Under the pieces are notes generated by a model. That model worked only from the letters and a program-made list of their open reading frames with translations. It had not been told where the DNA came from and searched no databases. From a virus, in the IMG/VR virus record IMGVR_UViG_3300000271_000010, positions 8,958 through 72,957 of that record: 64,000 bases of DNA; one strand, written 5' to 3'. Shown here in pieces: positions 6,852 to 63,274 of the stretch (position 1 is its first letter; every line of letters starts with the position of its first letter). The position numbers were made by a program, and so were the translations under genes.

Positions 6852-6888
6852 AGACTTGTCTCCTGATTCGCTGTTGTTTACGAATCAG

Positions 6889-6917
6889 CTTATAGGACAA
6901 ATCTTCCGGTTTGTCAA
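6889..6917 (-). promoter_or_regulatory. Repeated boxed promoter cassette
   Basis: TTGACA-AACC-GGAAGATTTGTCC-TATAAG; leader hairpin CTGATTCG/CGAATCAG. Confidence 0.85.
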
Positions 6918-6924
6918 ATTGTCG

Positions 6925-7188
6925 TCAGTCGGGCTTCCGATCCCGGAACTGATAACGACCCTTCGTGCTGCGCTGTTCGGCGTCCCGGATGATCCGTGCA
7001 GCCTCGCGCTCGCGCCGGACCGACCGGTTCGAATAAGGGGTGTCACGCGTCCGATCGCGATCGGCCTTGTCGGCGCGCTCAGAGCGCTCAGAGCGACGAT
7101 CCGGGTCGTGAGCGATCGCCGGGGCCGCATAGGCGCTCAACACAACGCAGAGCATCGCAGCGGCCATCAGGGGGTGTTTCATGTTCAT
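6925..7188 (-). CDS. Small secreted protein, Arg/Asp-rich
   Basis: Signal peptide LMAAAMLCVVLSAYAAPAIA; SD GAGGAG. Confidence 0.6.
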   Translation of the reverse strand: MNMKHPLMAAAMLCVVLSAYAAPAIAHDPDRRSERSERADKADRDRTRDTPYSNRSVRREREAARIIRDAEQRSTKGRYQFRDRKPD

Positions 7189-7203
7189 GTCGTTCTCCTC
7201 TTG

Positions 7204-8163
7204 TTAATTCCAGCCGAAGTTTTCGGCACAGATGGGTCCCATCGCCCGGTCGATGGATTCGTTACGGGTCAGCTTGCGGGCACAGATCGAGCAACGCCCT
7301 GTCCGTTGTCCGTAAGCTTTTGCGGCTGCTGCCGGGTCCGTCGCAACAGCGATGATCCGCTCCTGTTCATCGGCAGTCGTATTGAACGCCCGCACGAATC
7401 GTCCTTCGACGATCTTACCGAGATACCGGCGCTCGCCGGCGGCGTCTTTCTCGATCGTCTTGACGTAGATCGCGCCGGCGTTGGCACCGCTACGGACGGC
7501 CGAGAAAATGAAGGTATCAAGACGCAGCTTGGGATATTTGATACCATAGGTGATCGCCGAGGAAAATGCTTCTTCGATCTTGGTGAGCGAGTCACCTGTA
7601 ATGTCCGGGGCTCGCTCGGCGATCTGGCGGCGTTCTTCTTCGCGGGCGGCGTCTTGCGCCATGCAGCGACGAACGGCGGCAAGCTGGCGCTCGGTGAGGA
7701 AGCCATACTTCAAGACTGTCTGGGTCATCTCGAACGCGAATCCGAAACCACGCTTGGTGGCTTCCACCATCCACTGGGTTTCCGGCGCGTGGTCATCGAA
7801 CCACATTGCAGCCTTCTCGGCTGTCTCCTTAGCCTTACGCTCAGCCGCTGTGGCGCGCTGCTCAGCGGCCTTGGCGCGCTCCTCGGGTGAGGTCTTGAAG
7901 GTGACCTTGCCGGTCCCCTTGCAGTTAAAGCAGTTGCCCAGCACCCGACCGGTGTAGCCAAGGAAGAGCCCAGAGCCCAAACACTTGGGGCAAGTCTCCT
8001 CGTAGACGAGGCCACCTACCTTGGTTTCCTGACGGGCCTGTGAAAGGTGGTTGAACACGAAATCAGCATCGACCGACGGCTTGGGTTCGAACGCGCCAAA
8101 CAGGTCGGTGAGATCGTCGTCGAGACGTTCTTCGTGGTCAGGTTTCTTACAGATGCTGCACAT
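7204..8163 (-). CDS. DnaJ-type Zn-finger plus DUF6011-like protein
   Basis: CPKCLGSG...CFNCKGTG repeats; C-terminal CSICARKLT...SIDRAMGPICA. Confidence 0.75.
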   Translation of the reverse strand: MCSICKKPDHEERLDDDLTDLFGAFEPKPSVDADFVFNHLSQARQETKVGGLVYEETCPKCLGSGLFLGYTGRVLGNCFNCKGTGKVTFKTSPEERAKAAEQRATAAERKAKETAEKAAMWFDDHAPETQWMVEATKRGFGFAFEMTQTVLKYGFLTERQLAAVRRCMAQDAAREEERRQIAERAPDITGDSLTKIEEAFSSAITYGIKYPKLRLDTFIFSAVRSGANAGAIYVKTIEKDAAGERRYLGKIVEGRFVRAFNTTADEQERIIAVATDPAAAAKAYGQRTGRCSICARKLTRNESIDRAMGPICAENFGWN

Positions 8164-8172
8164 GGTGTGTCT

Positions 8173-8224
8173 CCGATTCGTTGTCTATGCGAATCGGTTT
8201 AGACACACCAAGTGCATTGGTCAA
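8173..8224 (-). promoter_or_regulatory. Promoter lacking the box but with leader hairpin
   Basis: TTGACC-16 nt-CTAAAC; CCGATTCG/CGAATCGG inverted repeat overlapping SD GGAG. Confidence 0.65.
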
Positions 8225-8261
8225 CTACTTTTTCCATGAGTCGGCGAAGCCGACTCATTCA

Positions 8262-9125
8262 TCAGTTTTTCCACTTAGAGTTTTTGCGATCCACCGCGTA
8301 GCTGGTGTTCATGATCCCAAGCTCGGGGTTGCCCCGATAGTGTGGTGGCACCAGAACGACCGAAACATTCTTGTAGCGTGGGTGAACGAGGAAACGCATG
8401 TGCGCGCGGACGAAGTGCAAGCACCGCTCGGGGCCGTCGCCTTGGCCTTGTGTGATTTTGATGTCGTGCTTGTCGATGTTCAGACGCACTTCATGGTGTG
8501 GGTGGTAGGGATACTTCCCACGCTTGAGCCGACGGGCATTGAGCCGGCCGAGATCGACTTCGCGCGTTCGGATCAGTTTAGGGGAGTTCATAAACGCCAG
8601 AAGGGAAAGCAACAGAGGCTTAACCACATTCATGAAAGGAATCATTTGCGCTTGGTGTAATAAGGGGTCAGAAGCAACTGTAACACTTGGTTCAATCAGA
8701 TTGAACATTTCCCTCGTCACCATATCAACACCCATGCGCTCTGCTCGAATCCGGGCGACGTGGTGAAGGTCACAGAATTGCATGTGGTAGTTTTCCAGAT
8801 TCACCGATATAGGTATGTAAGCTATTTCATCGCCATTTTTCCAATCGATGATAATCAGAGCGTGTCCAGATACAACACTTCTGTTGTCCCCATGGAAATA
8901 GACGCCGAAATCTGCACCAGAGAATCCAAACTCCATCCAAGTATCAAAGTCAGGCCAGCAGGTATATTTAGATATTTCCCGCATCTTCTTTTCGCTAGCG
9001 GTTTTGAGTAGGTCCGATGCCGCTGAAACAACGTCTGTATGGATCACAACTTTGCGCGATCCTTCCATCAGTTTTATCAAAAGACCATCGTCCTTTGTCA
9101 TTTCGGTTAGGCGGTCAGCAAACAT
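8262..9125 (-). CDS. Hypothetical protein (287 aa)
   Basis: SD AGGAGA; C-terminal HFVRAHMR...PPHYRG motif; visibly more AT-rich than flanks. Confidence 0.75.
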   Translation of the reverse strand: MFADRLTEMTKDDGLLIKLMEGSRKVVIHTDVVSAASDLLKTASEKKMREISKYTCWPDFDTWMEFGFSGADFGVYFHGDNRSVVSGHALIIIDWKNGDEIAYIPISVNLENYHMQFCDLHHVARIRAERMGVDMVTREMFNLIEPSVTVASDPLLHQAQMIPFMNVVKPLLLSLLAFMNSPKLIRTREVDLGRLNARRLKRGKYPYHPHHEVRLNIDKHDIKITQGQGDGPERCLHFVRAHMRFLVHPRYKNVSVVLVPPHYRGNPELGIMNTSYAVDRKNSKWKN

Positions 9126-9160
9126 CGTCAGTCTCCTATAAAATGTGATTCCATAAGAGT

Positions 9161-9189
9161 GGTCTACAAAATCATAATTCGTTGGTCAA
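9161..9189 (-). promoter_or_regulatory. Unboxed promoter
   Basis: TTGACC-17 nt-TAGACC upstream of 9125. Confidence 0.5.
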
Positions 9190-9446
9190 CCAGTTATTCC
9201 ACTTAAAGATGACCCGGCCGTTTTGATGTTCCGAAGTATCCGTCGGAAGCGGGATCGGCCATTTTTAAGAGCGCGGCCGGCTGTCTGGCCTGAGGATGGA
9301 AAGTGGAATGTGCCCTCCGTTCCGAATGCCTCGAATGTGATCGTGCAATGAGAAGCACCGTCTCTACCTCGGCCTATAATACGACCACCCACGAGTTTTA
9401 GCTCGTGGGTGATCATCTTCTCATATTCTCGTTCGCGGTGGTTCAT
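9186..9446 (-). CDS. Small basic protein, possibly HicA-like fold
   Basis: SHCTITF...FPSSG...RALKNGRSRFRR pattern; follows nadV stop. Confidence 0.45.
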   Translation of the reverse strand: MNHREREYEKMITHELKLVGGRIIGRGRDGASHCTITFEAFGTEGTFHFPSSGQTAGRALKNGRSRFRRILRNIKTAGSSLSGITG

Positions 9447-9450
9447 TGTA

Positions 9451-10920
9451 TCAGGCTTGATACACTGAACGCCACTTGGCGGCATTCTCTCGCACGGTCG
9501 GCCATTTCTGGAAGTTGCTGAGCGCTCCGTCTTCGTAGACAGTGCTGAGGTAGTTCACCTCACCGATCGCCAGTTCCTGTTCCAGAATGGTTTGGAGTTT
9601 GCCGTCGCCACCCCGTGCAACAACCGCAAATCTCCCTGCCTTCGAGGCCTTGGTGGGGTCCGTAGCAACTTCCTTGCGAACGTCGCGCGGCATCCCATCG
9701 ATGACCACGTAAGAGGTCTTCATCGCAAATCGGTGAGTGTCCCGCTCAGCTTCGTGGACCAACAGTCCTCCTCCCGAACCGAAGACCAGATTGTCCACTG
9801 ACCACTTGTGGTAGGTCACACGCTGGAGGATGCGGCGCAAGCTGTCCTCGTTGATCCCGTCGCCCTGAATGAGGCGCACATAATCAGGCAGGACCCGATA
9901 GCCCTTCTCGTTCACCGTCCAGCCAACGAGACTGCCGATCAGGTCGAGACAGTGGAGAACGTTGATGATCGGGTCGCCCGAGTCAGGACGCTGCACCAAA
10001 CGCATGGTGGTCTGACGTAGCCGATCGAGCAAACCGCCTTCCGATTCAGGTGTCAGCCACTTCCGGATTGCTTCATCCTGATCGTAGGTGTCGATCACCA
10101 CCGACACAGGATAGCGGCTGCCATCCGGCATCGTCTTATTGCCGTGTTCTTCCAGAATGTGTTCGAAGAACGCCTTTTCGTTCTCAGGTCCCCACGACGT
10201 GGTAACGGAGTGTTCGGTTGCCGGGATCGAATAACCGGGCATACCCTTCCACATATAGGCGTGCTTGGCGAACCGGATTCCCATCAGGTTATCGGTCACC
10301 TGAAAGTTCACGAGGTGTGCCATCCCGCCGATCGCAGCCGATTCGGTAGACGAAGCGCCACGAGCGCCGAAATCGACCATCAGCCAGTCAGCCAGTTCAG
10401 GTGTTCCGCTCTCGACCAGATAACGCTCCAGCAAGTTGTGCCAGCGCATCGACCGGGTTGCAATCGTCGTCGGATACCAAACAGCCCGGAGCAGCAAGGT
10501 CTCAACGTAAGCCGCTATCCCAGCACACTTTGGATCGGTCGATTCGACAGTTACCAGAACGGTTCCCTGATCAACCACAGTTCCTTCGGGCACTGCCTTG
10601 ACCCGGACCGGCAAGTAGCCATCGTGGTTCCAGACGATCCATTCCCAGATTGCCCGATTGAAGGGAATACCGTGGGCGGTCAGTTCCTCTTCGGCCTCAT
10701 CGATCATCTCAGTCGTTACCCGCTGCGAAAGATAGTAACGAAGAGCATATTGCAGACCGAAAAATTGGACGAAAGTGAATTGACCACCCTTACGGGCTTC
10801 GATGTAGCCGTAGCCGTTCTCGAACTTCGGGTGTTCGAAAGTCCAGTGAGTCGCCTTATAGGTGTCGGCGTTGAGGATCGGCTGGTTAAGCAGTTCCCCA
10901 ATGTTATTGATGAAATCCAT
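9451..10920 (-). CDS. nadV: Nicotinamide phosphoribosyltransferase (Nampt)
   Basis: NADTYKATH, DFGARG, PATEHS, VVIDTYD, RPDSGDP, IQGDG, FGSGGGL, FAMK motifs; ATG after GGAG. Confidence 0.95.
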   Translation of the reverse strand: MDFINNIGELLNQPILNADTYKATHWTFEHPKFENGYGYIEARKGGQFTFVQFFGLQYALRYYLSQRVTTEMIDEAEEELTAHGIPFNRAIWEWIVWNHDGYLPVRVKAVPEGTVVDQGTVLVTVESTDPKCAGIAAYVETLLLRAVWYPTTIATRSMRWHNLLERYLVESGTPELADWLMVDFGARGASSTESAAIGGMAHLVNFQVTDNLMGIRFAKHAYMWKGMPGYSIPATEHSVTTSWGPENEKAFFEHILEEHGNKTMPDGSRYPVSVVIDTYDQDEAIRKWLTPESEGGLLDRLRQTTMRLVQRPDSGDPIINVLHCLDLIGSLVGWTVNEKGYRVLPDYVRLIQGDGINEDSLRRILQRVTYHKWSVDNLVFGSGGGLLVHEAERDTHRFAMKTSYVVIDGMPRDVRKEVATDPTKASKAGRFAVVARGGDGKLQTILEQELAIGEVNYLSTVYEDGALSNFQKWPTVRENAAKWRSVYQA

Positions 10921-10930
10921 GTTAATCTCC

Positions 10931-12016
10931 TCAGAGGACCGAGTTGAAACGAGTCGCGAAGTGATCGACGACATTGAAGTGATCTTCGAACATCATCTCG
11001 CGGGTGACTTCATCGATCGGCCACCAGCGAGCGACGCTGGCATCGTCCTGACCCTGCACGAAGGGCAGATTAGTGCCCAGCGAGGTGAGGTCGAAGCCAT
11101 AGGCGACCGAGATCGTCCGCTTGCGGGTCGAGCGCCACGGATTGTCCAGCAACTTCTCGCCCTTACAAGCGAGGGCGAGGATCGCAATATGCACGTCGAT
11201 GTCGGTCTCTTCGACCAGTTCCCGAATCGCTGCCTGTTCGAAGGTTTCATCGATCCCGACATGCCCGCCGGGAAGAGCCCACAGGCCCTCGCCGGGCATC
11301 TGGCCGCGCCGCACCAGCAAGACGTGCCCGCCCATGATCACACAGGCATCAGCGGCCGTGAAATAGCGCGGATAGGGCGACTGCGAAAACTGGGCGAGGT
11401 AATCTTCCATGAAGTGGTATTCCCGGCGCATCTGATTGAAGCGCTCGGTGCTGACCCATTCTCGAAGGAAGCTGAAAGTCCCGCGAGGGAAGATCGTCTC
11501 GCCGGTCTGCTGCTGGAACCGGACAAGCATTTCGACCGCGTTATCTTCTTCGGGGATGTCGTAGAGAATCTTCCGAAGCTTTGTGGCGTCCAATGTCCCG
11601 TGAAGTTCTGGGCTGACAGGCGTCACATTGATCGAGCCCCACTGAGGGAACAAGGTCAGGTAGTAGGACGACCCGTCTTTCGAATAGCCGATCAACGCGA
11701 TGTCCGGATCAGGAATCGAGATCGCTTTGGCCTGATCGGTGACGCACTTCTGGACGGCGGCCACCCAGCGGTTGTCGTTCTCCTGATCTGGGATTCCGAG
11801 GATGAACACACGATCCTGCTCGGTGGGAGTCAGGCTGGCCCGGATCATTTCACGCACCTCTTCGAAGGTGAAGGGGTTGCGAAAATTGATAGGCTCGCCG
11901 ACCGATCCGACAATGATGAACAGGTATTGAGCCTTATGGAGGGCCTGCTTTACCACAGTCATGTGGCCGGCGTGGAATGGGCGCATACGCCCGGCGAAAA
12001 CGCAGATGTCATACAT
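10931..12016 (-). CDS. nadM: Bifunctional NMN adenylyltransferase / Nudix (ADP-ribose) hydrolase
   Basis: GRMRPFHAGH (HxGH), GIPDQENDNRW, Nudix box PGGHVGIDETFEQAAIRELVEET; SD AGGAGA. Confidence 0.93.
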   Translation of the reverse strand: MYDICVFAGRMRPFHAGHMTVVKQALHKAQYLFIIVGSVGEPINFRNPFTFEEVREMIRASLTPTEQDRVFILGIPDQENDNRWVAAVQKCVTDQAKAISIPDPDIALIGYSKDGSSYYLTLFPQWGSINVTPVSPELHGTLDATKLRKILYDIPEEDNAVEMLVRFQQQTGETIFPRGTFSFLREWVSTERFNQMRREYHFMEDYLAQFSQSPYPRYFTAADACVIMGGHVLLVRRGQMPGEGLWALPGGHVGIDETFEQAAIRELVEETDIDVHIAILALACKGEKLLDNPWRSTRKRTISVAYGFDLTSLGTNLPFVQGQDDASVARWWPIDEVTREMMFEDHFNVVDHFATRFNSVL

Positions 12017-12030
12017 AGTTGTGTCTCCTG

Positions 12031-12285
12031 TTAAATGCCGTAGCCCTGAGCGAAGAGTATGGATACCTGACCCACATCCGACCACTCAACATCCGTCATG
12101 CTTTTGATGCCGCGACGCTGGTGATTCCAGAGGAACTGCGCCGTCTCCATATCAGGAGCTACGACAAATTCCTCGCGTCGGTCGCGGGTGGTGTGTGAAT
12201 ATTCACTATCCATCCCGCCGCAGGTATCGACACGATGGTGATGATCATCAACGTATGATACGCGGAAGATGTGGGGGTGTATCAT
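12031..12285 (-). CDS. Hypothetical protein
   Basis: SD GAGGAG; tiles operon. Confidence 0.65.
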   Translation of the reverse strand: MIHPHIFRVSYVDDHHHRVDTCGGMDSEYSHTTRDRREEFVVAPDMETAQFLWNHQRRGIKSMTDVEWSDVGQVSILFAQGYGI

Positions 12286-12294
12286 AACTGCTCC

Positions 12295-14468: not shown

Positions 14469-14497
14469 CAGTTAGGACAAATCTTCCTACTCGTCAA
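14469..14497 (-). promoter_or_regulatory. Repeated boxed promoter cassette
   Basis: TTGACG-AGTA-GGAAGATTTGTCC-TAACT; overlaps stop of upstream gene. Confidence 0.85.
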
Positions 14498-15377: not shown

Positions 15378-15406
15378 CGAGTAGGACGATTCTTCCTATT
15401 CGTCAA
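15378..15406 (-). promoter_or_regulatory. Repeated boxed promoter cassette
   Basis: TTGACG-AATA-GGAAGAATCGTCC-TACTC; TGA stop of upstream gene lies inside TTGACG. Confidence 0.85.
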
Positions 15407-15813
15407 GCAAAAAGATTCAGCCCTTCAAGCGCCAGCTTGCACCGGCTCTTGCGGCCAAAGACATAGGAGCATGTGTCGATCGGGAGCGTCTTGATGACAT
15501 GACCGTCACGGATCGGGTAGGTCGGATCATGGACAACCCCGGTCGTCAGGCCAAGACCGGTGGCGATCGCCGTGCGGCTCAGCATCTGCATGTGCGTGCA
15601 GCCCAGCACAATGCAGATTCCGAAACCGTATGCTTCCCCATACCACTCTGAGAAGTGCTTCCCGAAGCCGTCCGGGTCTTTATCAGCCCGGTGGACCGCG
15701 TTACCAATGAACTGGGTGCCAGCGTGGTTGGATTGCGCCATCGCCTTACCCGGCACATAATCAGGCACATCAGTTCGCATCAGAACGTAGAGGATCATCG
15801 GGTCATCGGTCAT
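15403..15813 (-). CDS. Peptidyl-tRNA hydrolase Pth2-like protein
   Basis: LYVLMRTD...PGKAMAQSNHA, GICIVL, VVHDPT..., DTC..FG pattern of the PTH2 family. Confidence 0.65.
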   Translation of the reverse strand: MTDDPMILYVLMRTDVPDYVPGKAMAQSNHAGTQFIGNAVHRADKDPDGFGKHFSEWYGEAYGFGICIVLGCTHMQMLSRTAIATGLGLTTGVVHDPTYPIRDGHVIKTLPIDTCSYVFGRKSRCKLALEGLNLFA

Positions 15814-18055
15814 TCTTGAGTTCCTTCATATAGTCATCCGGACGCCAGTTGTTGTGCCGAACCATTGACTGCCGGCTGCGGCCATTCTGGCGCGTGATGC
15901 CACAGTGATAGATATGCGACAAATCTTCCACAGCAGGACACGAGAGCGTCTTTCTGGCTTGGGCGAGGCCGCGCTTCGACAGATAGAAGCTCACGTCGAA
16001 GCTGACCTGATTCCACGGGTTGTCCAGTCGCCATTCCAGTGGGTCGATACGCTGGAGCAAATAGTTCCCAACGTAAGCATCATCGCCGGGGTTCCAGTGC
16101 TGGAGATAGACCGGCATGTCATCGACTTCCATACCAAGAAGCCAAGCCAGATCGGCCGGGCAGCCGGGCGTTATAGCAAGCTGCCATGACGATTTTGCGC
16201 CGGTCAGGTAACAGCGGTGGTAATAAGGTTGCCGGTTGTGTCCTTGATCGAACGTCACCAGTGGGTCGCCAGTGGTTCGGCTATATTGATAGCTCTCAAG
16301 CTTTCGATTGAGATCGTTGAGACACGCAAACTGATACCGCTCCAGCTTCTTCTCTTCCGGGTCAGAATCCTTGTAGTTGGCTCCAAAGATTCCGAAGCGG
16401 TTGCGGCTCTTCTCCACTTGCTCGTGATGGGCATAGGCCAGCAGCAGATCAGCGCGTTCGATGATCCGTTCTTTGAACAGCTTGAGAATACGCGGACGCT
16501 CAGCTTCGAACTCGGCATCGGCTTCTCGCTGGATTCCGCGTGCGAAGTTGTGGCGAGCGATGAACTTGCGGTCAGCGTCGATCTGTTCACGGGTCCCGAA
16601 CAAGGTGGCATCCACACGCTCCAGCCCATAGTTGCGGGTGTCACTTCCATGCTCGAAGTGTGAAAGAGGTGTCTCACCGTGGAAGAGGTGAGATGTCGTG
16701 GTAGCCTTTTTCACTTCGTCGCCGACAGGGACGATCATACTCTCACCCTTACTCCACTTAGGCTTGGGTGTGGTGTCCCCTGAGGAAATGAACAATTGTG
16801 AGCCGTCGTTCATACCGATCTGGTTGAGGACTTCGACAGGCACACGCTCGCCGTAGCGCTCTTCCATCCACCGGTTGGCTCCATAGCTGCTCTCGTGGTC
16901 CTTCCAACGCGCTCCGATTGCCTTCTCGTCGAGTGCATCGGTCATGACATCCTTGGGTGTCAGGATCGGAAGTGACAGCGGCTGGTAGCCAACCACCGGG
17001 AGGTTGCTCTGAGCAGCCCGAGCGATGAGGGTGTTCTGATCTTCCAGACGAATCATCTCGTTGGTGTATGACAGAGCGCGGGGTTCGATCGGCTTGCGCC
17101 AATAGTTCTCCACGATCAGGTCGAACATCAGCGTCGTCCAGACGATCTGCCCGAGTTCAAGGTCTTCCAGCTTCTTCAACTCGAAGTGGTGCGGCTGGTG
17201 TGGCACCAGTCCCTTTGCCTGCGACTCGCGATACTTGTCGTGATAGGGGTTACCCTTCTCGTCATACTTGATGGCGAGCAACTGATAGGGGAACCAGTTC
17301 TTCGAGATACGTTCGTCGAACTCCCGGTCCGGGCGGCGCGACATTGAACGGCCGAGCGGGTGGGCATATTCCTGCGAATCGGTCAGGAAGATCAGGTTAC
17401 CACCGTTGCGGATTGCGAAGGCAAAATAGCTGTGAAGCTCGTCCGGATCGCGGATCAGGTTCAGCGACACACCACTAGGCATCCCGCAGACATGCTCGAT
17501 CATCGAGTTGATGTTCCAGTATCCGAACACCATCTTGTTGTAGACCGGCTTGACCGTAGTGGGATCGACCTCGCCGGCAAGGAATTGATCGGCCCGCAAG
17601 CGGTTGGCTGACTTGAGCGCGTCGCGTCGGATGATTGCCAGATGCGCGCGATCCTCGAAGAACTTGTTGATCCGATCGGATTCGATCCCGTAAGCCAACA
17701 GGGCCTGTCGGGTCGCTTCGAAGAACTCGTCGGCTGGCTGCATGATTTCAGGAGCGCGGATGAGTTTCTTGAACTCACGCACCTTATCCATGTAGTCGAA
17801 AATCTTGTCCGGGTCTTCGTCGAACTCATGAACCGAGACCTTGGCTTCCTTGAAGTAGGAAGTAGAGAAGGCGTCGAGAAGCAAGTAGGTCGTGATGAAC
17901 GACTTGTCGTAGTCCATGGACTGCTCCAATTCGTCGTTCATGGTTTTGAGACCCCACGTCCGCATGTTCCACGACTTCGCGTTGGGGTCCATACCAGTTA
18001 GGTCGAGCCACAGCGCGATAGCCCGGTTGAAGTGTTCAGCCGATGTGATCATCAA
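15803..18055 (-). CDS. Large hypothetical protein (750 aa)
   Basis: Longest ORF, phage-like codon use, TGATGA overlap; no motif recognised. Confidence 0.85.
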   Translation of the reverse strand: MMITSAEHFNRAIALWLDLTGMDPNAKSWNMRTWGLKTMNDELEQSMDYDKSFITTYLLLDAFSTSYFKEAKVSVHEFDEDPDKIFDYMDKVREFKKLIRAPEIMQPADEFFEATRQALLAYGIESDRINKFFEDRAHLAIIRRDALKSANRLRADQFLAGEVDPTTVKPVYNKMVFGYWNINSMIEHVCGMPSGVSLNLIRDPDELHSYFAFAIRNGGNLIFLTDSQEYAHPLGRSMSRRPDREFDERISKNWFPYQLLAIKYDEKGNPYHDKYRESQAKGLVPHQPHHFELKKLEDLELGQIVWTTLMFDLIVENYWRKPIEPRALSYTNEMIRLEDQNTLIARAAQSNLPVVGYQPLSLPILTPKDVMTDALDEKAIGARWKDHESSYGANRWMEERYGERVPVEVLNQIGMNDGSQLFISSGDTTPKPKWSKGESMIVPVGDEVKKATTTSHLFHGETPLSHFEHGSDTRNYGLERVDATLFGTREQIDADRKFIARHNFARGIQREADAEFEAERPRILKLFKERIIERADLLLAYAHHEQVEKSRNRFGIFGANYKDSDPEEKKLERYQFACLNDLNRKLESYQYSRTTGDPLVTFDQGHNRQPYYHRCYLTGAKSSWQLAITPGCPADLAWLLGMEVDDMPVYLQHWNPGDDAYVGNYLLQRIDPLEWRLDNPWNQVSFDVSFYLSKRGLAQARKTLSCPAVEDLSHIYHCGITRQNGRSRQSMVRHNNWRPDDYMKELKNDR

Positions 18056-18336: not shown

Positions 18337-18365
18337 CGGATAGGATAAATCTTCCTAGGAGTCAA
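18337..18365 (-). promoter_or_regulatory. Repeated boxed promoter cassette
   Basis: TTGACT-CCTA-GGAAGATTTATCC-TATCC. Confidence 0.8.
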
Positions 18366-24585: not shown

Positions 24586-24614
24586 CGAATAGGACGATTC
24601 TTCCGGTTCGTCAA
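24586..24614 (-). promoter_or_regulatory. Repeated boxed promoter cassette
   Basis: TTGACG-AACC-GGAAGAATCGTCC-TATTC. Confidence 0.85.
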
Positions 24615-26416: not shown

Positions 26417-26445
26417 CAGGTAGGACAAATCTTCCTACTCGTCAA
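26417..26445 (-). promoter_or_regulatory. Repeated boxed promoter cassette
   Basis: TTGACG-AGTA-GGAAGATTTGTCC-TACCT; leader hairpin TGATTCG/CGAATCA; overlaps upstream stop. Confidence 0.85.
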
Positions 26446-30288: not shown

Positions 30289-30317
30289 CGATTAGGACAA
30301 ATCTTCCGGTTCGTCAA
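30289..30317 (-). promoter_or_regulatory. Repeated boxed promoter cassette
   Basis: TTGACG-AACC-GGAAGATTTGTCC-TAATC. Confidence 0.85.
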
Positions 30318-31287: not shown

Positions 31288-31316
31288 GGAATAGGATGAT
31301 TCTTCCGGTTCGTCAA
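31288..31316 (-). promoter_or_regulatory. Repeated boxed promoter cassette
   Basis: TTGACG-AACC-GGAAGAATCATCC-TATTC; thioredoxin TGA inside TTGACG. Confidence 0.85.
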
Positions 31317-35612: not shown

Positions 35613-35641
35613 CGAGTAGGAAGATTCATCCGGATGGTCAA
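35613..35641 (-). promoter_or_regulatory. Promoter cassette with box flipped relative to -35
   Basis: TTGACC-ATCC-GGATGAATCTTCC-TACTC. Confidence 0.75.
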
Positions 35642-38287: not shown

Positions 38288-38316
38288 CGGATAGGACAAA
38301 TCTTCCTAGTCGTCAA
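38288..38316 (-). promoter_or_regulatory. Repeated boxed promoter cassette
   Basis: TTGACG-ACTA-GGAAGATTTGTCC-TATCC; hairpin CCGATTCG/CGAATCGG. Confidence 0.85.
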
Positions 38317-42803: not shown

Positions 42804-42832
42804 CGATTAGGACGATTCTTCCGGCTCGTCAA
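42804..42832 (-). promoter_or_regulatory. Repeated boxed promoter cassette
   Basis: TTGACG-AGCC-GGAAGAATCGTCC-TAATC; lies inside the last codons of the upstream gene. Confidence 0.85.
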
Positions 42833-47608: not shown

Positions 47609-47637
47609 GGCGTAGGACGATTCTTCCGGGTCGTCAA
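47609..47637 (-). promoter_or_regulatory. Repeated boxed promoter cassette
   Basis: TTGACG-ACCC-GGAAGAATCGTCC-TACGC. Confidence 0.85.
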
Positions 47638-51994: not shown

Positions 51995-52023
51995 CGTCTA
52001 GGACAAATCTTCCGCTTCGTCAA
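51995..52023 (-). promoter_or_regulatory. Repeated boxed promoter cassette
   Basis: TTGACG-AAGC-GGAAGATTTGTCC-TAGAC. Confidence 0.85.
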
Positions 52024-55311: not shown

Positions 55312-55340
55312 CGGATAGGATAATTCTTCCTAGTCGTCAA
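55312..55340 (-). promoter_or_regulatory. Repeated boxed promoter cassette
   Basis: TTGACG-ACTA-GGAAGAATTATCC-TATCC; overlaps upstream stop. Confidence 0.85.
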
Positions 55341-56860: not shown

Positions 56861-56893
56861 GCTACGGCAATGCCGTAGAGGGCCTTAACCATA

Positions 56894-57088
56894 TCAGCGA
56901 AGTCTTTCAGCGAACGCGATGAGATCGGACGCCATGGCGTCCCATTCCTCGACCGCTATAATGAATGGTGTGATGTCATCCCGGACGGTAAGACGACGCT
57001 CCAGTTCGGCTTCTCGCTTTATGTCATGTGCTACGAGCTTGAGGCGAGATTGCCAAGCCTTGATCCAACGTTCGCGTTCAGTTTCCAT
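56894..57088 (-). CDS. Hypothetical protein
   Basis: SD AAGGA. Confidence 0.65.
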   Translation of the reverse strand: METERERWIKAWQSRLKLVAHDIKREAELERRLTVRDDITPFIIAVEEWDAMASDLIAFAERLR

Positions 57089-57115
57089 CTGTATCTGTCC
57101 TTCTATCCGAGATGC

Positions 57116-57645: not shown

Positions 57646-58076
57646 GAAACCGACTCGTAGAAATCCAAGGTATTGATGAACCGGTCGCGAACCGACACGG
57701 CGATCTCGTAGGGCGTGATGTCGTTGCCCGAGTTCATCATGTTCTCGATCACCTTCTCCAATTCCGAGAGGGTCGGGAAGTTGGATTGGGCGATCTCGAC
57801 GCCGCGTTGCAGGGCAGCAAGGGCCATATCGGTTGCGCTCTCATACACATCGTCCCAGTAATCCTGACCTAATTCTTCCGCGATCTCGGTAAGAAATGCA
57901 ACCATCCGATCGGCTGGTTCAAGGAGGATCAAGCCGCGAGTGCGCCATCGCTTCAGTTCTTCTTCCACGAAGTCGGCCGGCGCGTTGACCTTTGCCAACA
58001 GAGCGCGGAAGTCGTCGGCAGTGATCTGGGTGGGAGGTGGTGTATCATCCTCAGCCAGTAGATTTGGTGTAGTCAT
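57642..58076 (-). CDS. Acidic hypothetical protein
   Basis: TAATG overlap. Confidence 0.7.
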   Translation of the reverse strand: MTTPNLLAEDDTPPPTQITADDFRALLAKVNAPADFVEEELKRWRTRGLILLEPADRMVAFLTEIAEELGQDYWDDVYESATDMALAALQRGVEIAQSNFPTLSELEKVIENMMNSGNDITPYEIAVSVRDRFINTLDFYESVS

Positions 58077-58360
58077 TAGCTTCCGCCTCCATGGTCGATA
58101 ATGTGTTGGGCTTGGCCTTCCCGGCCCGTCAGACCCTCTTGGATGACTTCGCGGTTACGCTTCACGGAAACACCAAGGTAGGTCTCGATGTGAAAGTCTT
58201 CGTCCGCAGCGGCGAGGATCGCTTCGGCTTCTTCCTTATGGCGTTCGGCCGATCGGCGGATGATAGCGATCATCTCAGCGGCTGGCACCCGTCCTAGTTC
58301 ACCTATACCAGCACCGCGCCGCAGTCCGGGGAGATGGATCGAAGTCATGCGGATGCTCAT
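58076..58360 (-). CDS. Hypothetical protein
   Basis: ATGA overlap. Confidence 0.65.
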   Translation of the reverse strand: MSIRMTSIHLPGLRRGAGIGELGRVPAAEMIAIIRRSAERHKEEAEAILAAADEDFHIETYLGVSVKRNREVIQEGLTGREGQAQHIIDHGGGS

Positions 58361-58764
58361 GATAGTTGTCCTTCCATCCGCAAGCGGCGCTTGGGATCAA
58401 GCGCGCGGCAGAACTCCACCGCTTCTTTGACATTACTATCGTTCGGGTAGCAAGTGGCGTAGAGAAGCAAGCAGTCGATATGGCCGAATGCTCGGTGCTT
58501 GATGCTCGTGATCTCCTGCCCTTGTTGCATCGCACGAGCGTTCGCGATCAAGGCATTCTTTTCCAGCAAAGCATTTTGCTCAACCAGCGCCTGATATCCA
58601 GCACCTTCGAGAACTGCTTGCGCGAGCCGGCGATAGGTGTCGGCTGCTCCCAGTTGATCGGTGTTACACTCAGGCCAAGGGAACGCGATATGCCAAACAT
58701 CGTCGGCTTCGTAGAGCGCTTTGGCGGCCATCTCGATAATCACCTTCGGAATAGGTGTCGTCAT
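58357..58764 (-). CDS. Hypothetical protein
   Basis: ATGA overlap. Confidence 0.65.
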   Translation of the reverse strand: MTTPIPKVIIEMAAKALYEADDVWHIAFPWPECNTDQLGAADTYRRLAQAVLEGAGYQALVEQNALLEKNALIANARAMQQGQEITSIKHRAFGHIDCLLLYATCYPNDSNVKEAVEFCRALDPKRRLRMEGQLS

Positions 58765-59105
58765 TCTTCTGCTCCCAAGCTGAGGATAAGATGGCGTAGC
58801 CGTGCGACCGCGTTGCACAGCGCCTCGTAGGCTTTGCCATGGTTACCGGCACGGACGTGTTCCCGCGCTTTGGCTTGCTGCTGGAGGAAGAGCATGTCCT
58901 TCTCGATCGCCAATGCCTGTTTGCGGAATTGCGTCAAAGCTTCCTCTTCACCATGTTTTCGGTGTTGAGCGAGAAGATCGATAAGAGCATCCAGCCGGTT
59001 CAGTTCGTTGTTGTCTATCGCCCAGTAGTGGGCATCTTCCATGCTGTCGAACCCTAGGAAGGAAAGAGCGGCGGCTTGATCAAGCGCGTTGACAGGGGCT
59101 TTCAT
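58761..59105 (-). CDS. Hypothetical protein
   Basis: ATGA overlap. Confidence 0.65.
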   Translation of the reverse strand: MKAPVNALDQAAALSFLGFDSMEDAHYWAIDNNELNRLDALIDLLAQHRKHGEEEALTQFRKQALAIEKDMLFLQQQAKAREHVRAGNHGKAYEALCNAVARLRHLILSLGAEE

Positions 59106-59479
59106 TCTTCCGCTCCGCTGACGTGTTCGAGCCCAAATTCCTGTGCCGTGTTTTGGGTCAAGAAGCCTTGGTCATTGATGCGCCAGACGCCGGTTTCTAT
59201 CCGGGTCTGGATGATGTCATTGATCTCTTTATCATTACACATCATATTTCTTTCAGCATCTTGGTTTGCCCGTTCGGTCAGTATTCGTTCGGCTGCGAAG
59301 TGCCATGCTTTCGCATCATCGCGAAAAGGCGCGGTCACCTCCTCTTCGAACTGTGCAAAGACTTCGCCGGTCGTCCGGAAGCCTTTGCGTTCGCGGATCG
59401 TCTTGGCCGTCCCGTGTTGTCCAAGGAACTCCCAGAACTTGGCAGCAGCTTCGATGGCGGCTGGTGAGGGGGTGATCAT
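59102..59479 (-). CDS. Hypothetical protein
   Basis: ATGA overlap. Confidence 0.65.
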   Translation of the reverse strand: MITPSPAAIEAAAKFWEFLGQHGTAKTIRERKGFRTTGEVFAQFEEEVTAPFRDDAKAWHFAAERILTERANQDAERNMMCNDKEINDIIQTRIETGVWRINDQGFLTQNTAQEFGLEHVSGAEE

Positions 59480-59745
59480 TTCTTTTCCTTCCACTTAGCC
59501 GCGCGGCGGCGATCCCGGACCAGCCCCGCGCCCACCCAAAAGAAAGCGTAGGCAACCATGCCGAGTCCATACCCGTTCTCTCCCAGCAGGTAGCCGCTAA
59601 GGAGGATAGGTGAGATTGCAGCGAAAAAAGCCCCCGCAGCAAGCAGAACGACCAGTATGATCTCAATACAGGCAATGATCGTATGAATGAAGAAAGGTAG
59701 GCGGTCACGCCATTCGGTATAGGCGTCAAAGTATTTCCGGATCAT
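59476..59745 (-). CDS. Small 2-TM membrane protein
   Basis: Two hydrophobic segments; ATGA overlap. Confidence 0.65.
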   Translation of the reverse strand: MIRKYFDAYTEWRDRLPFFIHTIIACIEIILVVLLAAGAFFAAISPILLSGYLLGENGYGLGMVAYAFFWVGAGLVRDRRRAAKWKEKK

Positions 59746-60110
59746 GCGCCCGGTGCCAGCATATACTTGGACGCGATGCAAATAACGCTTTCCCAGTCGG
59801 AGTTGTCGAAATACTCTTGGATGGCGCGAGCGTCGGCTTCCTGTTCCTTGGGGATGATGAACGTCCCATCCATCTGGAGAGCTTTGACATCATCCTCACT
59901 TACCATCGGTCGGCCATAATCATCATAGGATTCCCGTGTGCAGCGCTCGTTTTCAAGTTCGAGCCGGAGGGCCAGTTCGTGGCGTTCTGCGGGTGGGATC
60001 AGCACTCCAATGATGCAGGGTGAACCGTAGTTGCAAGACCCGACATGCGGACGTGCTTCTTCCAGAAGTTCCGGGGTGAGGTTGTGGAGATTGATGTGGA
60101 TGGGGTTCAT
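59742..60110 (-). CDS. Family C paralog (C2)
   Basis: INLHNLTPELLEEAR...CNY..PCIIGVLIP...IQEYFD.SDW..V...A.KY. Confidence 0.75.
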   Translation of the reverse strand: MNPIHINLHNLTPELLEEARPHVGSCNYGSPCIIGVLIPPAERHELALRLELENERCTRESYDDYGRPMVSEDDVKALQMDGTFIIPKEQEADARAIQEYFDNSDWESVICIASKYMLAPGA

Positions 60111-60310
60111 AAACCGATGTCCTTGCGATTGCGTGTGACGTGAAACTTGAAAGCATCCCCCACTTTCACCACCAGTTCAGCTATGCTGTTGGCATGGAAG
60201 CAGAAGTTGGGGCTCTCATTGCGCACAGCAAAATAGGTCCCGTCGTCGGCTTTCCGCACCTCAAACAGGTGGTGGGTATCGTGTTCGTAGACGATTGTGG
60301 TGTCAGCCAT
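60107..60310 (-). CDS. Small protein, possibly HicB-like N-terminal fold
   Basis: DDGTYFAV...FHANSIAELVVKVGDA; SD GAGGAG. Confidence 0.5.
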   Translation of the reverse strand: MADTTIVYEHDTHHLFEVRKADDGTYFAVRNESPNFCFHANSIAELVVKVGDAFKFHVTRNRKDIGL

Positions 60311-60446
60311 TTGACTGCTCCTCACATCCCTTGCAGCCGGGATGGCGATACGGTTCTCGCTCTTCGCCGACCGGCTGGGTGCCAGTGTGCGAGCCGACGA
60401 GGGTGAATTGGTAGTTGTCGCGTGGGCGCGTGATGATACGGCTCAT
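60303..60446 (-). CDS. 47-aa peptide
   Basis: ATGA overlap with B6 stop; ends CKGC. Confidence 0.45.
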   Translation of the reverse strand: MSRIITRPRDNYQFTLVGSHTGTQPVGEEREPYRHPGCKGCEEQSNG

Positions 60447-60850
60447 GTTGCTACCTTCGCGAACAGATAAGGAGCCTCGCCGGCTTCTTGAGCAGTGGCG
60501 TTTTCCGGTAGACCATGTGCCATCAGGTAACGAATACGCTTCGCTGCACCGTGCGGTGTGTTATCTACCTCAGACCAGTGACCAGAGAAGCACCAGCACC
60601 ACTCAAGATAAGGGAGTTGGAAGACCCGCTCCGAATATGAATCCCAGTCTTCTCCCTTGTATCCCGGTAAGCCGGCTGCTGGTCCGTGACCGACGGCGCA
60701 AGCTACCGTTCCGCAAGTAAAGTTAGTGGCTTTTTCTGGGAAATACCAATTGTCATCAATGGTGAAATACCAGTCCATCCCGAAGTGATTGTAATCTTCC
60801 GGGAGTTCTTCCAGATAGGAAGCCAGCTTCTCAAGGTTCTCGCGGTTCAT
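60443..60850 (-). CDS. Family B tandem paralog (B6)
   Basis: MNRENLEKLASYLE...HFGM...CGTVACAVGHGPAAG...WCF..HW..VDNTPHGAAKRIR. Confidence 0.9.
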   Translation of the reverse strand: MNRENLEKLASYLEELPEDYNHFGMDWYFTIDDNWYFPEKATNFTCGTVACAVGHGPAAGLPGYKGEDWDSYSERVFQLPYLEWCWCFSGHWSEVDNTPHGAAKRIRYLMAHGLPENATAQEAGEAPYLFAKVAT

Positions 60851-61260
60851 GCTGTTTCCTTCGCGAACATATAAGGCGCTTCACCCCAGCACTGCTCATA
60901 AGCATCTTCTGGCAGACCATACTTCAACATATAGCGGATGCGCTTAGCAGCCCCTTGTGGTGTGTCGTCGATCACAGCCCAAGCACCAGAGAAACACCAT
61001 CTTTCTTGGCTAGTGGATAAATCGAATGCCCGGCGCGCGTAACCTACCCAGTTCTCGTGACCTGACGGCTCAATTCCAGCAGCAGGTCCGTGGCCGACAG
61101 CACAAGCAACCGTTCCGCACTCGCCGGCGAGCGGTGATCGATCAACATAGAAAATCACCCCGTTGTTGTTTTTGAAATAAGAAGACATCCCGAAGTGTTC
61201 ATAATCTTCCGGGAGTTCTTCCAGATAGGAAGCCAGCTTCTCAAGGTTCTCGCGGTTCAT
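60847..61260 (-). CDS. Family B tandem paralog (B5)
   Basis: Same scaffold; ATGA overlap. Confidence 0.9.
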   Translation of the reverse strand: MNRENLEKLASYLEELPEDYEHFGMSSYFKNNNGVIFYVDRSPLAGECGTVACAVGHGPAAGIEPSGHENWVGYARRAFDLSTSQERWCFSGAWAVIDDTPQGAAKRIRYMLKYGLPEDAYEQCWGEAPYMFAKETA

Positions 61261-61670
61261 GCTGTTTCCTTCGCGAAGATGTAGGGAGCCTTGCCGGTCA
61301 TTTGCTTGCTGGAATCCTCCGGAAGACCGTGTTCAAGGAGATAGCGAATGCGCTTGGCCGCACCGTGTGGTGTGTTGTCCACCCTTACCCAATCACCGGC
61401 GAAACACCAATGCCATTCAGGGACGCGCAGATCGAAAGCCAGTGCCACGTAATCGGACCACCAAACCACCCCCGGAATTAGGATGCCGGCTGCTGGTCCG
61501 TGACCGGCCGCGCACGCTACCGTTCCACAAGCACCGGCGAGAGGTGCGGAAAACACCGGTTTGTGGAAGCCGTCCGCTCCTTTGAAATAATTATTCATCC
61601 CGAAGTGTTGGTAATCTTCCGGGAGTTGTTCCAGATAAGAGGCGAGCATTGTGAGATTGGCGCGGTTCAT
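61257..61670 (-). CDS. Family B tandem paralog (B4)
   Basis: Same scaffold; ATGA overlap. Confidence 0.9.
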   Translation of the reverse strand: MNRANLTMLASYLEQLPEDYQHFGMNNYFKGADGFHKPVFSAPLAGACGTVACAAGHGPAAGILIPGVVWWSDYVALAFDLRVPEWHWCFAGDWVRVDNTPHGAAKRIRYLLEHGLPEDSSKQMTGKAPYIFAKETA

Positions 61671-62086
61671 GCTGCTGTCTCCTTTGCGAACATATAAGGT
61701 GCATAGCCCGTCCGCTGTTTGTAGCCGTCCGCTGGGACACCGTGTTCGAGCATGTGGCGGATGCGCTTGGCAGCACCGTGCGGGGTGTTATCCGTCTGAG
61801 ACCAACGCGAAGAAAAGCACCACGACCATTCGGTGGTTGTCATTGGGAACACCCGATCCGAATACTCGTCCCAATTCTCGTAACCGGTCGGCGCGATTCC
61901 AGCCGCCGGTCCGTGGCCGATTGCGCACGCTACCGTGCCGCAGTTCCCAAGACCGGTGGCAGCGTAGGGCTTAGGATGATGTTCTTCTTCGTTGTTGCTG
62001 AAATAACTCGCCATTTCGAAGTGCTGATAGTCAGCCGGGAGCCCTTCCAGATAGGAAGCCAGCTTCTCAAGGTTCTCGCGGTTCAT
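61667..62086 (-). CDS. Family B tandem paralog (B3)
   Basis: Same scaffold; ATG 62086 after AGGAGA. Confidence 0.9.
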   Translation of the reverse strand: MNRENLEKLASYLEGLPADYQHFEMASYFSNNEEEHHPKPYAATGLGNCGTVACAIGHGPAAGIAPTGYENWDEYSDRVFPMTTTEWSWCFSSRWSQTDNTPHGAAKRIRHMLEHGVPADGYKQRTGYAPYMFAKETAA

Positions 62087-62502
62087 GCTACTGTCTCCTG
62101 TGCGAAGAGGTAAGGTGACATCCCCCAGCACTGCTCGATGGGGTCTTCTGGCAAGCCATGTTCGAGGAGATGTCGGATGCGCTTTGCAGCACCTTGTGAG
62201 GTATCATCCACATGCATCCAATCACCGTCGAAGCACCACAACCATTGGTCATGATTCAGATCGAAAGCGCGCTCAGCATAGGCGTTCCAACTCTCATTCC
62301 CATGCACAGCGGGGATACCGGCCGCCGGGCCGTGGCCGACCGCGCAAGCGACAGTGCCACAATCCCCAGCGATGGGGGCTGTGTCGGCATAGGAATAGAG
62401 ATGACCGTCTTGGCAAAGAAAGGATTGCATCCCGAAGTGCTGATAGTTAGTTGGGAGCCCTTCCAGATAGGAAGCCAGCTTCTCAAGGTTCTCGCGGTTC
62501 AT
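62083..62502 (-). CDS. Family B tandem paralog (B2)
   Basis: Same scaffold; ATGA overlap. Confidence 0.9.
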   Translation of the reverse strand: MNRENLEKLASYLEGLPTNYQHFGMQSFLCQDGHLYSYADTAPIAGDCGTVACAVGHGPAAGIPAVHGNESWNAYAERAFDLNHDQWLWCFDGDWMHVDDTSQGAAKRIRHLLEHGLPEDPIEQCWGMSPYLFAQETVA

Positions 62503-62918
62503 GCTGCTGTCTCCTGTGCGAACAGATAAGGGGCATCGCCCGCAAGCTGATCAACCAAATCAAAGGGGGCACCGTGTTCGAGCATATGCCGGATGCGCTT
62601 GGCAGCGCCGTGCGGGGTATTATCCACCTGCGACCAATTACCGTCGAAGCACCAGTAATGTTCACGGTGAGTCAGATCGAATACGCGTCGGGCATAATCA
62701 GACCACCATTCCAAACAGCCGAGAGGTGCGATACCCGCTGCTGGTCCGTGACCGACAGCGCAAGCGACAGTGCCGCAGGTGCCAGCCAGAGGAGCCTCGT
62801 CAGCATGATTGTGGTAAAACTCGTCATCTACCAAGTAGACATTCATATGGAAATGATTGTAGTCAACGGGCAGTGCTTCCAGATAGGACGCGAGCTTTTC
62901 GAGGTTGTCCCGGTTCAT
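62499..62918 (-). CDS. Family B tandem paralog (B1)
   Basis: Same scaffold; ATGA overlap. Confidence 0.9.
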   Translation of the reverse strand: MNRDNLEKLASYLEALPVDYNHFHMNVYLVDDEFYHNHADEAPLAGTCGTVACAVGHGPAAGIAPLGCLEWWSDYARRVFDLTHREHYWCFDGNWSQVDNTPHGAAKRIRHMLEHGAPFDLVDQLAGDAPYLFAQETAA

Positions 62919-63220
62919 GCCACTGGCTCCTTGATATACTTGTGAGCGACCTCAAGGACTCCATACCAGTCGCCGCTGTCGAAGCGATCTTGGAGTTTGG
63001 TGAGGTCATCGAATTGTTCCAGAGGATATTCCACGAACTGTTTGATCCGTTCGCCGTTGATGCCAGCACTCTGTGGGAAGTCCGGGTCTTCCCGCACTTC
63101 CTTCGGAATGAGGGTGCCGATGATGCAAGGAGCCCGGTAGGTTTGCATACCCAATTTCGCCCGCGCTTCGTCGAGGTGGGCTTGGGTCAGGTCGTTGAGA
63201 TCAATCTTGGTCTTCGGCAT
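62915..63220 (-). CDS. Family C paralog (C1)
   Basis: IDLNDLTQAHLDEAR...TYRAPCIIGTLIP...LQDRFDSGDW.GV..VAHKY; first gene after cassette. Confidence 0.78.
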   Translation of the reverse strand: MPKTKIDLNDLTQAHLDEARAKLGMQTYRAPCIIGTLIPKEVREDPDFPQSAGINGERIKQFVEYPLEQFDDLTKLQDRFDSGDWYGVLEVAHKYIKEPVA

Positions 63221-63245
63221 GTCTGTCTCCTGTTGTTGTGCGAAT

Positions 63246-63274
63246 CAGGTAGGACAATTCTTCCTACTCGTCAA
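63246..63274 (-). promoter_or_regulatory. Repeated boxed promoter cassette
   Basis: TTGACG-AGTA-GGAAGAATTGTCC-TACCT. Confidence 0.85.

Follow-up and report, generated by a model that had tools for sequence, protein, structure and literature searches.

The stretch analysed here (the window) comprises 64,000 nucleotides, bases 8958-72957 of a 132,380-bp IMG/VR virus contig (G000) that is estimated to be 78% complete. It carries an array of minus-strand promoters with a conserved 13-bp box between the -35 and -10 elements, and a small operon whose last gene encodes P0001, a candidate reader of the box. The closest named relatives of the contig are the Erythrobacter phages XM05 (~79% nucleotide identity over parts) and vB_EliS-L02 (L02 below), the latter described as the first CbK-like phage of Erythrobacter (PMC9127768). 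By its sequence, the contig is a large CbK-like phage of sphingomonad-type bacteria. From ~4.6 to 64 kb of the window the genes are almost all small and lie on the minus strand, and near-identical 70-nt cassettes stand before many small, variable genes.

Promoter cassettes with a box in the spacer

The preliminary description of this DNA had listed 15 boxes and placed them in minus-strand promoter cassettes. Both points held. The sequence GGAAGAWTYRTCC matched the window exactly 15 times, at the positions that had been listed (Table 1), and all 15 exact boxes lie within a minus-strand TTGAC-N5-GGAAGAWTYRTCC-TA frame. When up to one mismatch was allowed, we counted 17 matches, versus a mean of 0.65 and a maximum of 3 in shuffled sequences. 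The one-mismatch match at 3146 is a real conserved site within another promoter, described below, and the one at 15917 lies within an open reading frame, has no TTGAC and is at chance level. This frame belongs to a minus-strand gene of about 700-750 amino acids (15803-18055) that is missing in the relative G001.

We call these promoters class A. After the box and TA come (C/T)GATTCG and a CAACAAC-type leader, then GGAGA(C/T) and, 40-60 nt on, a start codon; the leader includes a Shine-Dalgarno sequence, and an A-rich stretch lies upstream of the promoters. The copy at 35619 had been described as flipped, and the internal asymmetry of its box is indeed reversed (GGATGAATCTTCC); the promoter itself is still on the minus strand. 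A motif scan of the whole 132-kb contig, as the preliminary description had suggested, returned 15 minus-strand copies and one plus-strand copy. A profile of the whole 80-nt cassette found the same 15 copies together with the plus-strand copy, at contig position 3492, upstream of the window.

We found no terminators upstream of the class A promoters, and each -35 region directly adjoins the stop codon of the gene before it. This arrangement suggests that the promoters serve as boosters inside a single long array. A leader hairpin, GATTCG...CGAATC, occurs in roughly half of them; its role in the RNA is doubtful because the 5' arm is placed at the presumed start or upstream of it. Two promoters amid the array do without the box (6050-6074 and 8200-8224): GGTGGAGTTAATC replaces it in one, and the other has a spacer (ACTTGG) like that of class B, a second promoter class described below. 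Both are kept in G001.

Table 1. Window coordinates of the promoters of the array and of the P0001 operon. The fourth column gives the position of the match to GGAAGAWTYRTCC, exact unless marked.
Feature	Position	Strand	Box match	Remarks
Class A core	6893..6917	-	6895	TTGACAAACC-GGAAGATTTGTCC-TA
Class A core	14473..14497	-	14475	box GGAAGATTTGTCC
Class A core	15382..15406	-	15384	box GGAAGAATCGTCC
Class A core	18341..18365	-	18343	box GGAAGATTTATCC, linker TCCTA
Class A core	24590..24614	-	24592	box GGAAGAATCGTCC
Class A core	26421..26445	-	26423	box GGAAGATTTGTCC
Class A core	30293..30317	-	30295	box GGAAGATTTGTCC
Class A core	31292..31316	-	31294	box GGAAGAATCATCC
Class A core	35617..35641	-	35619	reversed box asymmetry, TTGACCATCC-GGATGAATCTTCC-TA
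Class A core	38292..38316	-	38294	box GGAAGATTTGTCC
Class A core	42808..42832	-	42810	box GGAAGAATCGTCC
Class A core	47613..47637	-	47615	box GGAAGAATCGTCC
Class A core	51999..52023	-	52001	box GGAAGATTTGTCC
Class A core	55316..55340	-	55318	box GGAAGAATTATCC
Class A core	63250..63274	-	63252	box GGAAGAATTGTCC
Box-less promoter of the same frame	6050..6074	-		TTGACGAACCGGTGGAGTTAATCTA
Class B-like promoter	8200..8224	-		TTGACCAATGCACTTGGTGTGTCTA
Regulator-operon promoter	3145..3158	+	3146 (one mismatch)	TTGACAAATCTTCC; inverted box (12/13 match) overlaps the -35 hexamer; terminator hairpin just upstream
Operon gene 1	3200..3634	+		DUF7695 protein
Operon gene 2	3627..4253	+		phosphoesterase (PHROG 547)
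Operon last gene, P0001	4246..4479	+		predicted 77-amino-acid Cro/C1-type helix-turn-helix protein, candidate box-binding regulator

Promoter core, spacer classes and constraint on the box

We compared 73 class A promoters from six genomes, and the counts of constraint given below refer to this set. TTGAC is invariant in 73/73, its sixth base being G, A, C or T, and the spacer between TTGACN and TA measures exactly 17 bp in every copy. At the -10 element only T-12 and A-11 are conserved; position -7 is mostly G (TAnnnG), and the TA is preceded by C. The -10 elements of Alphaproteobacteria are relaxed. The box spans -25 to -13, and its position relative to -35 and -10 never varies.

A scan of the contig for TTGAC-N17-CTA gave 39 matches, versus 3.5 by chance, all of them pointing at genes. 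These matches fall into three classes, which have the TTGAC -35 and the CTA at -13 to -11 in common and differ in their spacers. The spacer of class A is the 13-bp box; class B has TTGACCGAATC(A/G)... (about 32 promoters on the plus strand, contig 79.4-98.9 kb), and class C, TTGACAnCCACCGnCATTTT..CTA, stands before two large tail-region genes. The recurrence of three spacer classes suggests that the class-specific spacer is a signal added to a common core. XM05 has the same three classes, as do four IMG/VR relatives that are complete or nearly so. Boxed promoters number 11 in L02 and are absent from phiCbK.

Class B provides nearly one promoter per small gene over 20 kb, each behind a terminator (G000 79,400-98,900; loci L092 and L093). 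Its cassettes run terminator, GGTAAC, GTTAAGGTTAAC or its complement, GTTAACCAT, GTGGAAAAAGTGC, TTGACCGAATCA..CCTAGAAACGAATCA, leader and GGAGACA. Class C promoters, TTGACA(A/G)nCACCGACATTTTnnCTA, lie at G000 124,288 and 128,329, where the two tail-region genes are paralogous; XM05, G001 and G004 have the same class, and a related form occurs in L02. The earlier suggestion that the box switches the whole early region does not stand as worded: the roughly 32 class B promoters lie on the plus strand just outside the window, and class C serves the tail genes. Also outside the window is a non-coding, repeat-rich stretch (G000 78,000-79,440; locus L092 about 5100-6540) with seven copies of TATGGATCGAGGCCATTTTGC, arrays of GTTAACCTTAAC/GTTAAGGTTAAC and recurring GGGACCC words. 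This stretch could serve as an origin or as a packaging site, or mark a terminal-repeat boundary.

Within the box, positions 1-3 (GGA), 8 (T) and 11-13 (TCC) are invariant, and position 6 is A in 71/73. The choice of bases is limited at positions 4, 5, 7, 9 and 10 and almost free at the five positions of the linker. The claim that the linker varies and GGA-N7-TCC does not was confirmed by 13 syntenic pairs of G000 versus G001, among which linker and box each show 12 changes. Every change in the box affects position 4, 7, 9 or 10, and the other nine positions are untouched (~7e-7 under a uniform model). The general consensus, GGAnRA-W-TYnTCC, is palindromic, with the centres of GGA and TCC 10 bp apart. 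In Citromicrobium phage RXM, the four class A boxes are the perfect palindrome GGACAAATTGTCC (TAGGACAAATTGTCCTA).

Conservation of this kind might be a by-product of cassettes that spread or recombine as a unit, like the promoter-early stem-loop (PeSL) cassettes of T4-type phages, and the near-identity of the 70-nt cassettes before variable genes is in line with such hitch-hiking. The details speak against it. Variation is limited to four positions of the box and the adjoining linker drifts freely, and the box persists in phages whose regulator is just 30-50% identical. Synteny breakpoints versus G001 lie within 100 bp of 8/17 cassettes and of 38/109 other gene starts, so that breakpoints are not enriched at the cassettes and we rejected these as recombination hot spots; unlike PeSL cassettes, they do not mark recombination junctions. 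We find hitch-hiking scarcely credible.

The boxed frame is nearly absent from bacteria: among 185,579 bacterial species genomes we found four single matches, one genome each and none alphaproteobacterial. It is thus not a host promoter type, and is phage-specific. This also bears on the idea that no dedicated protein reads the box, which would then be a spacer or extended -10 element recognised by the host polymerase, or a means of tuning promoter strength through DNA shape. The TCC end does adjoin the -10 TA, class B also has CC at -14/-13 and every class has C at -13, and the place of the box between -35 and -10 is constant. However, classes B and C have the same core with entirely different spacers, copies with reversed asymmetry occupy the same frame, one conserved promoter has the box inverted and shifted over the -35 hexamer, and bacterial genomes lack the frame bar the four chance matches. 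An effect intrinsic to the polymerase is very improbable on this evidence.

An epigenetic explanation takes the centre of the box, GAWTY (-21 to -17), for a GANTC site of CcrM that the host's GcrA reads, so that transcription of the phage would be coupled to the methylation state of the DNA. GANTC occurs in 35/73 boxes at about -20, as in GcrA-regulated promoters (PMC4647560). Over the whole contig, TGATTCG, the best GcrA word, is found 76 times versus 34 expected, in a sequence otherwise depleted of GANTC (497 versus 731). In most cassettes, moreover, the -10 is followed at about -8 to -2 by (C/T)GATTCG, and some leaders contain CGAATC. Against these points, GANTC is missing from more than half of the boxes (it occurs in 0/7 of those of G004 and in none of those of RXM and L02), and the invariant GGA and TCC ends lie outside the GcrA word. 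We did not find GcrA, an N6_N4 methyltransferase or Sigma70_r2 in the contig, nor GcrA in five relatives; in the six genomes of the clade no gene for GcrA or an N6_N4 methyltransferase was found. We rate methylation of the box as a remote prospect. As a separate observation, in both promoter classes TGATTCG/CGAATCA is concentrated beside the -10 and the start region, and methylation may matter for these flanking GATTCG elements rather than for the box.

P0001 as candidate reader of the box

P0001 had no Pfam or PHROG match, even at E = 10. Its AlphaFold model consists of five helices (predicted local distance difference test score, pLDDT, 91). The nearest solved folds are HigA2, MqsA, Aca1/Aca2, RsaL, HipB and the C-proteins of restriction-modification systems, with template-modelling (TM) scores of 0.58-0.66 and a root-mean-square deviation of about 2 Å, and a search of the ESM Atlas led to the same fold family. 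Foldseek gave no match between P0001 and solved structures at E <= 0.001, and the fold is called from the TM-scores and the uniform family of the top matches. HigA2, MqsA, Aca1/Aca2, RsaL, HipB and the C-proteins are of XRE type and bind palindromic operators over promoters.

Each of the seven boxed Erythrobacter-type phages has an orthologue of P0001 (49-84% identity), and phiCbK has none. The orthologues share an invariant core, G-x-S-x-G-R-x-x-R-R-W. The whole family is small: a profile search of 1.84 billion representatives returned only 37 members, the more distant of them on contigs whose short length reveals no promoters. About 20 of the 37 are tandem two-domain fusions, a frequency suggesting that two domains are the working unit. 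Three members end in a genuine Sigma70_r4 domain, and one of these is the syntenic gene of Sphingobium phage Lacusarx that is annotated sigA. The product of this gene (LAV_00121, 'sigma factor SigA'; locus L116 10001-10771) is without sigma region 2 and consists of two P0001-like domains followed by sigma-70 region 4 (compare P0028 and P0031).

P0001 is linked to the box by the promoter of its own operon, where the context is terminator-TTTTTCG-TTGACAAATCTTCC. In six phages this promoter reads TTGACAA(A/T)TCTTCC behind terminator-TTTTTCG, and in Lacusarx TTGACAAATCTTCT, with flanks that cannot be aligned. The box over the -35 hexamer of the P0001-operon promoter is kept in eight phages. In RXM, a P0001 homologue (profile E = 3e-12) is the first gene after the promoter, TTGACAATTTGTCC. 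Set beside the regulon boxes of RXM, GGACAAATTGTCC, this sequence indicates that the box of the regulator promoter has changed together with those of the regulon. The comparison with RXM also shows that the helix-turn-helix gene is the only gene staying with the operon promoter.

The presumed recognition helix varies with the half-site. RAC or RAT goes with GGAAGA; where the helix has RTT (G004, L02) or KTLT (RXM), the half-site is GGAnAA or GGACAA. In the tandem protein P0003, one domain is of the RTT kind and the other of the RAT kind, and the boxes on its contig are GGAAGA-A-TTGTCC. In the class A promoters of Lacusarx, the -35-proximal ACCGGAAGAATCG is kept and the distal half is lost.

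Judged from these sequence patterns, the 13-bp box most likely serves as the binding site of a small helix-turn-helix protein that the phage encodes. We lean, by a narrow preference, towards a joint reading in which the class A cassettes are promoters for the host housekeeping (sigma-70-type) RNA polymerase and the class A box is the operator of P0001, which would repress both the class A units and its own promoter. Two DNA-reading domains would contact the GGA and TCC ends, one helical turn apart. P0001 seated in the spacer (-25 to -13) would keep RNA polymerase off the promoter and so lower the expression of the 15 class A units of the minus-strand array in concert; at its own promoter, where the box covers the -35, it would curb its own production. 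The sequences show the motif, its constraint and confinement to phages, the modelled fold of P0001 and the co-variation; binding, a two-domain stoichiometry in this phage and repression rather than activation are what we infer. Repression is probably the sign of the effect, by analogy with the SsoII operator discussed below.

The preliminary description had offered two interpretations of the box, as the operator of a dimeric regulator or as the mark of a phage-specific promoter class. The comparative evidence fits both, and they are mutually compatible. The frame is phage-specific and its constraint is position-specific, the candidate protein is Cro/C1-like with a box in its own promoter, and it has tandem relatives. 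The palindrome needs qualifying, the GGAAGA half being biased to one side.

Several points weigh against P0001 as a repressor acting from a palindromic operator. GGAAGA is the -35-proximal half in 57/73 promoters and the distal half in 5/73, never on both sides, so that the box is not a true palindrome; the partner half is GGAYRA. A plain homodimer does not predict such unequal use of the halves, nor the one-half boxes of Lacusarx. The co-variation of helix and half-site draws on about three lineages. The co-occurrence of P0001 and box is confounded by phylogeny, the boxed phages being one clade, and among cultured phages the distribution of P0001 is matched by that of a 273-amino-acid XRE/ImmR-like regulator of the replication module. 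The weak -10 hexamers (TAnnnG) could mean that the promoters need help rather than repression, and the fusions to sigma-70 region 4 suit a partner of the polymerase as well as a repressor.

These last two points lead to an alternative with the same protein and the same site and the opposite sign. A P0001-family protein bound in the spacer would act as an activator or specificity partner beside sigma region 4, help promoters with a weak -10 and set their temporal class, and would repress only its own promoter, where the box covers the -35. Such a role would suit the Sigma70_r4 domain that stands behind two P0001-like domains in three members, the syntenic sigA of Lacusarx among them. It would also suit the placing of GGAAGA at a fixed 10 bp from the TTGAC centre in the 73 promoters and as the only half kept in Lacusarx, and the -10 hexamers of class A, the poorest of the three classes. 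On the other side, MerR-type activators that bind between -35 and -10 need spacers of 19-20 bp, and the spacer here is 17 bp; the near-consensus -35 makes help with recruitment seem unnecessary; and the fused sigma-4 domain could equally serve a repressor that occupies the -35. We consider activation unlikely. What speaks for it is the sigma-4 fusion, the position of GGAAGA a fixed helical turn from TTGAC, the preference of that half for the -35 side and the weak -10 hexamers.

A broader proposal along the same line is that one host-type core, TTGAC...CTA, is sorted into three temporal classes purely by the sequence of the spacer. The reader of class A would belong to a new helix-turn-helix family that works beside sigma region 4, as a separate protein in Erythrobacter phages and, in Lacusarx, covalently joined to a sigma-4 domain. 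If so, it would in effect be a modular, sigma-like promoter-specificity factor without region 2. We regard this proposal as doubtful.

The box might also be the operator of another reader, either the 273-amino-acid XRE/ImmR-like regulator of the replication module, which would lie in the missing part of the contig, or a host factor. That regulator is present in four phages with boxed promoters (XM05, L02, Lacusarx and RXM), and the contig is just 78% complete. Another reader would leave unexplained, however, why the P0001-operon promoter carries the box over its -35 in eight phages, why this box changes in step with the regulon boxes, and how the pattern of helix and half-site arose; a host factor sits badly with a promoter type that is represented by four chance matches in 185,579 bacterial species genomes. 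Another reader is rather improbable, in our judgement. One further point on its side comes from unrelated temperate-phage-like contigs (loci L019, L020, L034, L040 and L075), whose double GGACAAWTTGTCC operators accompany unrelated XRE/Cro pairs.

In these temperate-phage-like contigs the perfect palindrome GGACAAWTTGTCC occurs twice, abutting the -35 upstream and in the spacer. The double sites lie between divergent XRE and Cro-like genes, a classical immunity layout. We found no homologue of these XRE/Cro pairs in the contig or in the cultured phages, and a profile-profile comparison with the P0001 family was not significant.

Other regulators were sought among the 212 predicted proteins. 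Pfam scans gave DNA-binding matches only to GapR_DNA-bd and to DUF1153/HTH_Tnp_1, and none to the MotA or AsiA families; a home-made sigma-4 profile found nothing in the contig. The GapR-like product (window 898-1335, plus strand; Pfam PF10073, E = 7e-34) was rejected as box reader, GapR being not sequence-specific. The DUF1153/HTH_Tnp_1 protein was likewise set aside, as probably the small terminase. GapR is a type of nucleoid-associated protein of Alphaproteobacteria. A tblastn search of plasmids with P0001, aimed at methyltransferase fusions, returned only noise.

Known systems and significance

The closest likeness lies at the level of operator sequence. The regulatory site of the SsoII/Ecl18kI restriction-modification systems is AGGACAAATTGTCCT, AGGACAA(A/T)TTGTCCT; it is bound 2:1 by the N-terminal XRE-type helix-turn-helix domain of the methyltransferase, with DNA-mediated dimerisation, and M.SsoII and M.Ecl18kI repress by sterically excluding RNA polymerase from the promoter (PMC3978073, PMC2760811). 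The operator is nearly the same here: the RXM boxes and some of those of L02 are GGACAAATTGTCC, and the box at 63252 of the window is AGGAAGAATTGTCCT. The site overlaps the promoter in both cases, and the reader, a candidate in the phage, is of XRE type. The SsoII/Ecl18kI systems differ in that one site serves one operon of a bacterial defence system and the domain is fused to an enzyme, whereas a lytic-type phage has 15-16 sites at a fixed position in a family of promoters and a free-standing candidate of 77 amino acids. The SsoII palindrome also occurs twice in several of the unrelated temperate-phage contigs, which suggests that this type of operator is widespread.

CbK-like phages carry clusters of CtrA-binding sites (Mascolo et al. 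2022, PMC9437464). The class B cassettes, with GTTAACCAT and GTTAAGGTTAAC upstream, resemble these clusters (PMC9437464), and GTTAACCAT and the TTAAC words look like CtrA half-sites. Near the class A promoters we found no GTTAAC-type words (by the criterion TTAA-N7-TTAAC or TTAACCAT); such words cluster at contig 78-99 kb, in class B. The phage group and the principle of arrays of regulated promoters are the same, but the class A element lies in the spacer and is not the motif of a host factor.

Aca1/Aca2, the C-proteins, HigA2 and MqsA, with the nearest solved folds to the P0001 model (TM-scores as given above), act as dimers on palindromes that overlap their own promoters and control one or two promoters. 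In its proposed role P0001 would differ from these small autorepressors by a regulon of at least 16; it also belongs to no Pfam family and has tandem and sigma-4-fused relatives. Among phage repressors with many operators, the L5 gp71 stoperators and the phiC31 conserved inverted repeats are sites of 13-17 bp, found in 15-30 copies across an early region, preferentially in one orientation, and recognised by a single phage protein. L5 and phiC31 are temperate, the protein maintains lysogeny, and the L5 sites lie mostly outside promoters and block elongation. The class A boxes do not match this layout, since all 16 copies sit at one fixed position inside promoters.

In the middle promoters of T4, a MotA box at about -30 replaces the -35 and acts together with AsiA, a mechanism termed 'sigma appropriation'. 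Class A is similar in being a phage promoter class that combines a host sigma-70 -10 with an extra upstream element, and the sigma-4 fusion hints at an interplay with region 4. The match with MotA ends there: TTGAC is kept in every class A copy and the extra element lies in the spacer. Activation from the spacer as in MerR-type systems is not matched either, the spacer measuring 17 bp in all class A copies.

Multi-copy operator regulons and XRE autorepressors are known. The P0001 family, its fusions and the spacer-coded system of promoter classes are undescribed, and boxed promoters were not described in the literature that we searched. The family, with no database model, 37 clusters and informative fusions (tandem and to sigma region 4), is a new helix-turn-helix family. 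The near-identity of its presumed operator with the M.SsoII site raises the question of how unrelated mobile elements come to reuse a single type of operator. In practice, the three promoter classes can be used for annotating transcription units in related genomes, and a class A promoter with its reader could serve as a portable repressible promoter for Alphaproteobacteria. If the favoured reading is true, a single small protein acting at a 13-bp site would control about 57 kb of the phage, including genes for NAD salvage, RNA repair and tRNA synthetases, and would offer a handle on the transcription programme of the poorly studied large phages of marine and freshwater sphingomonads.

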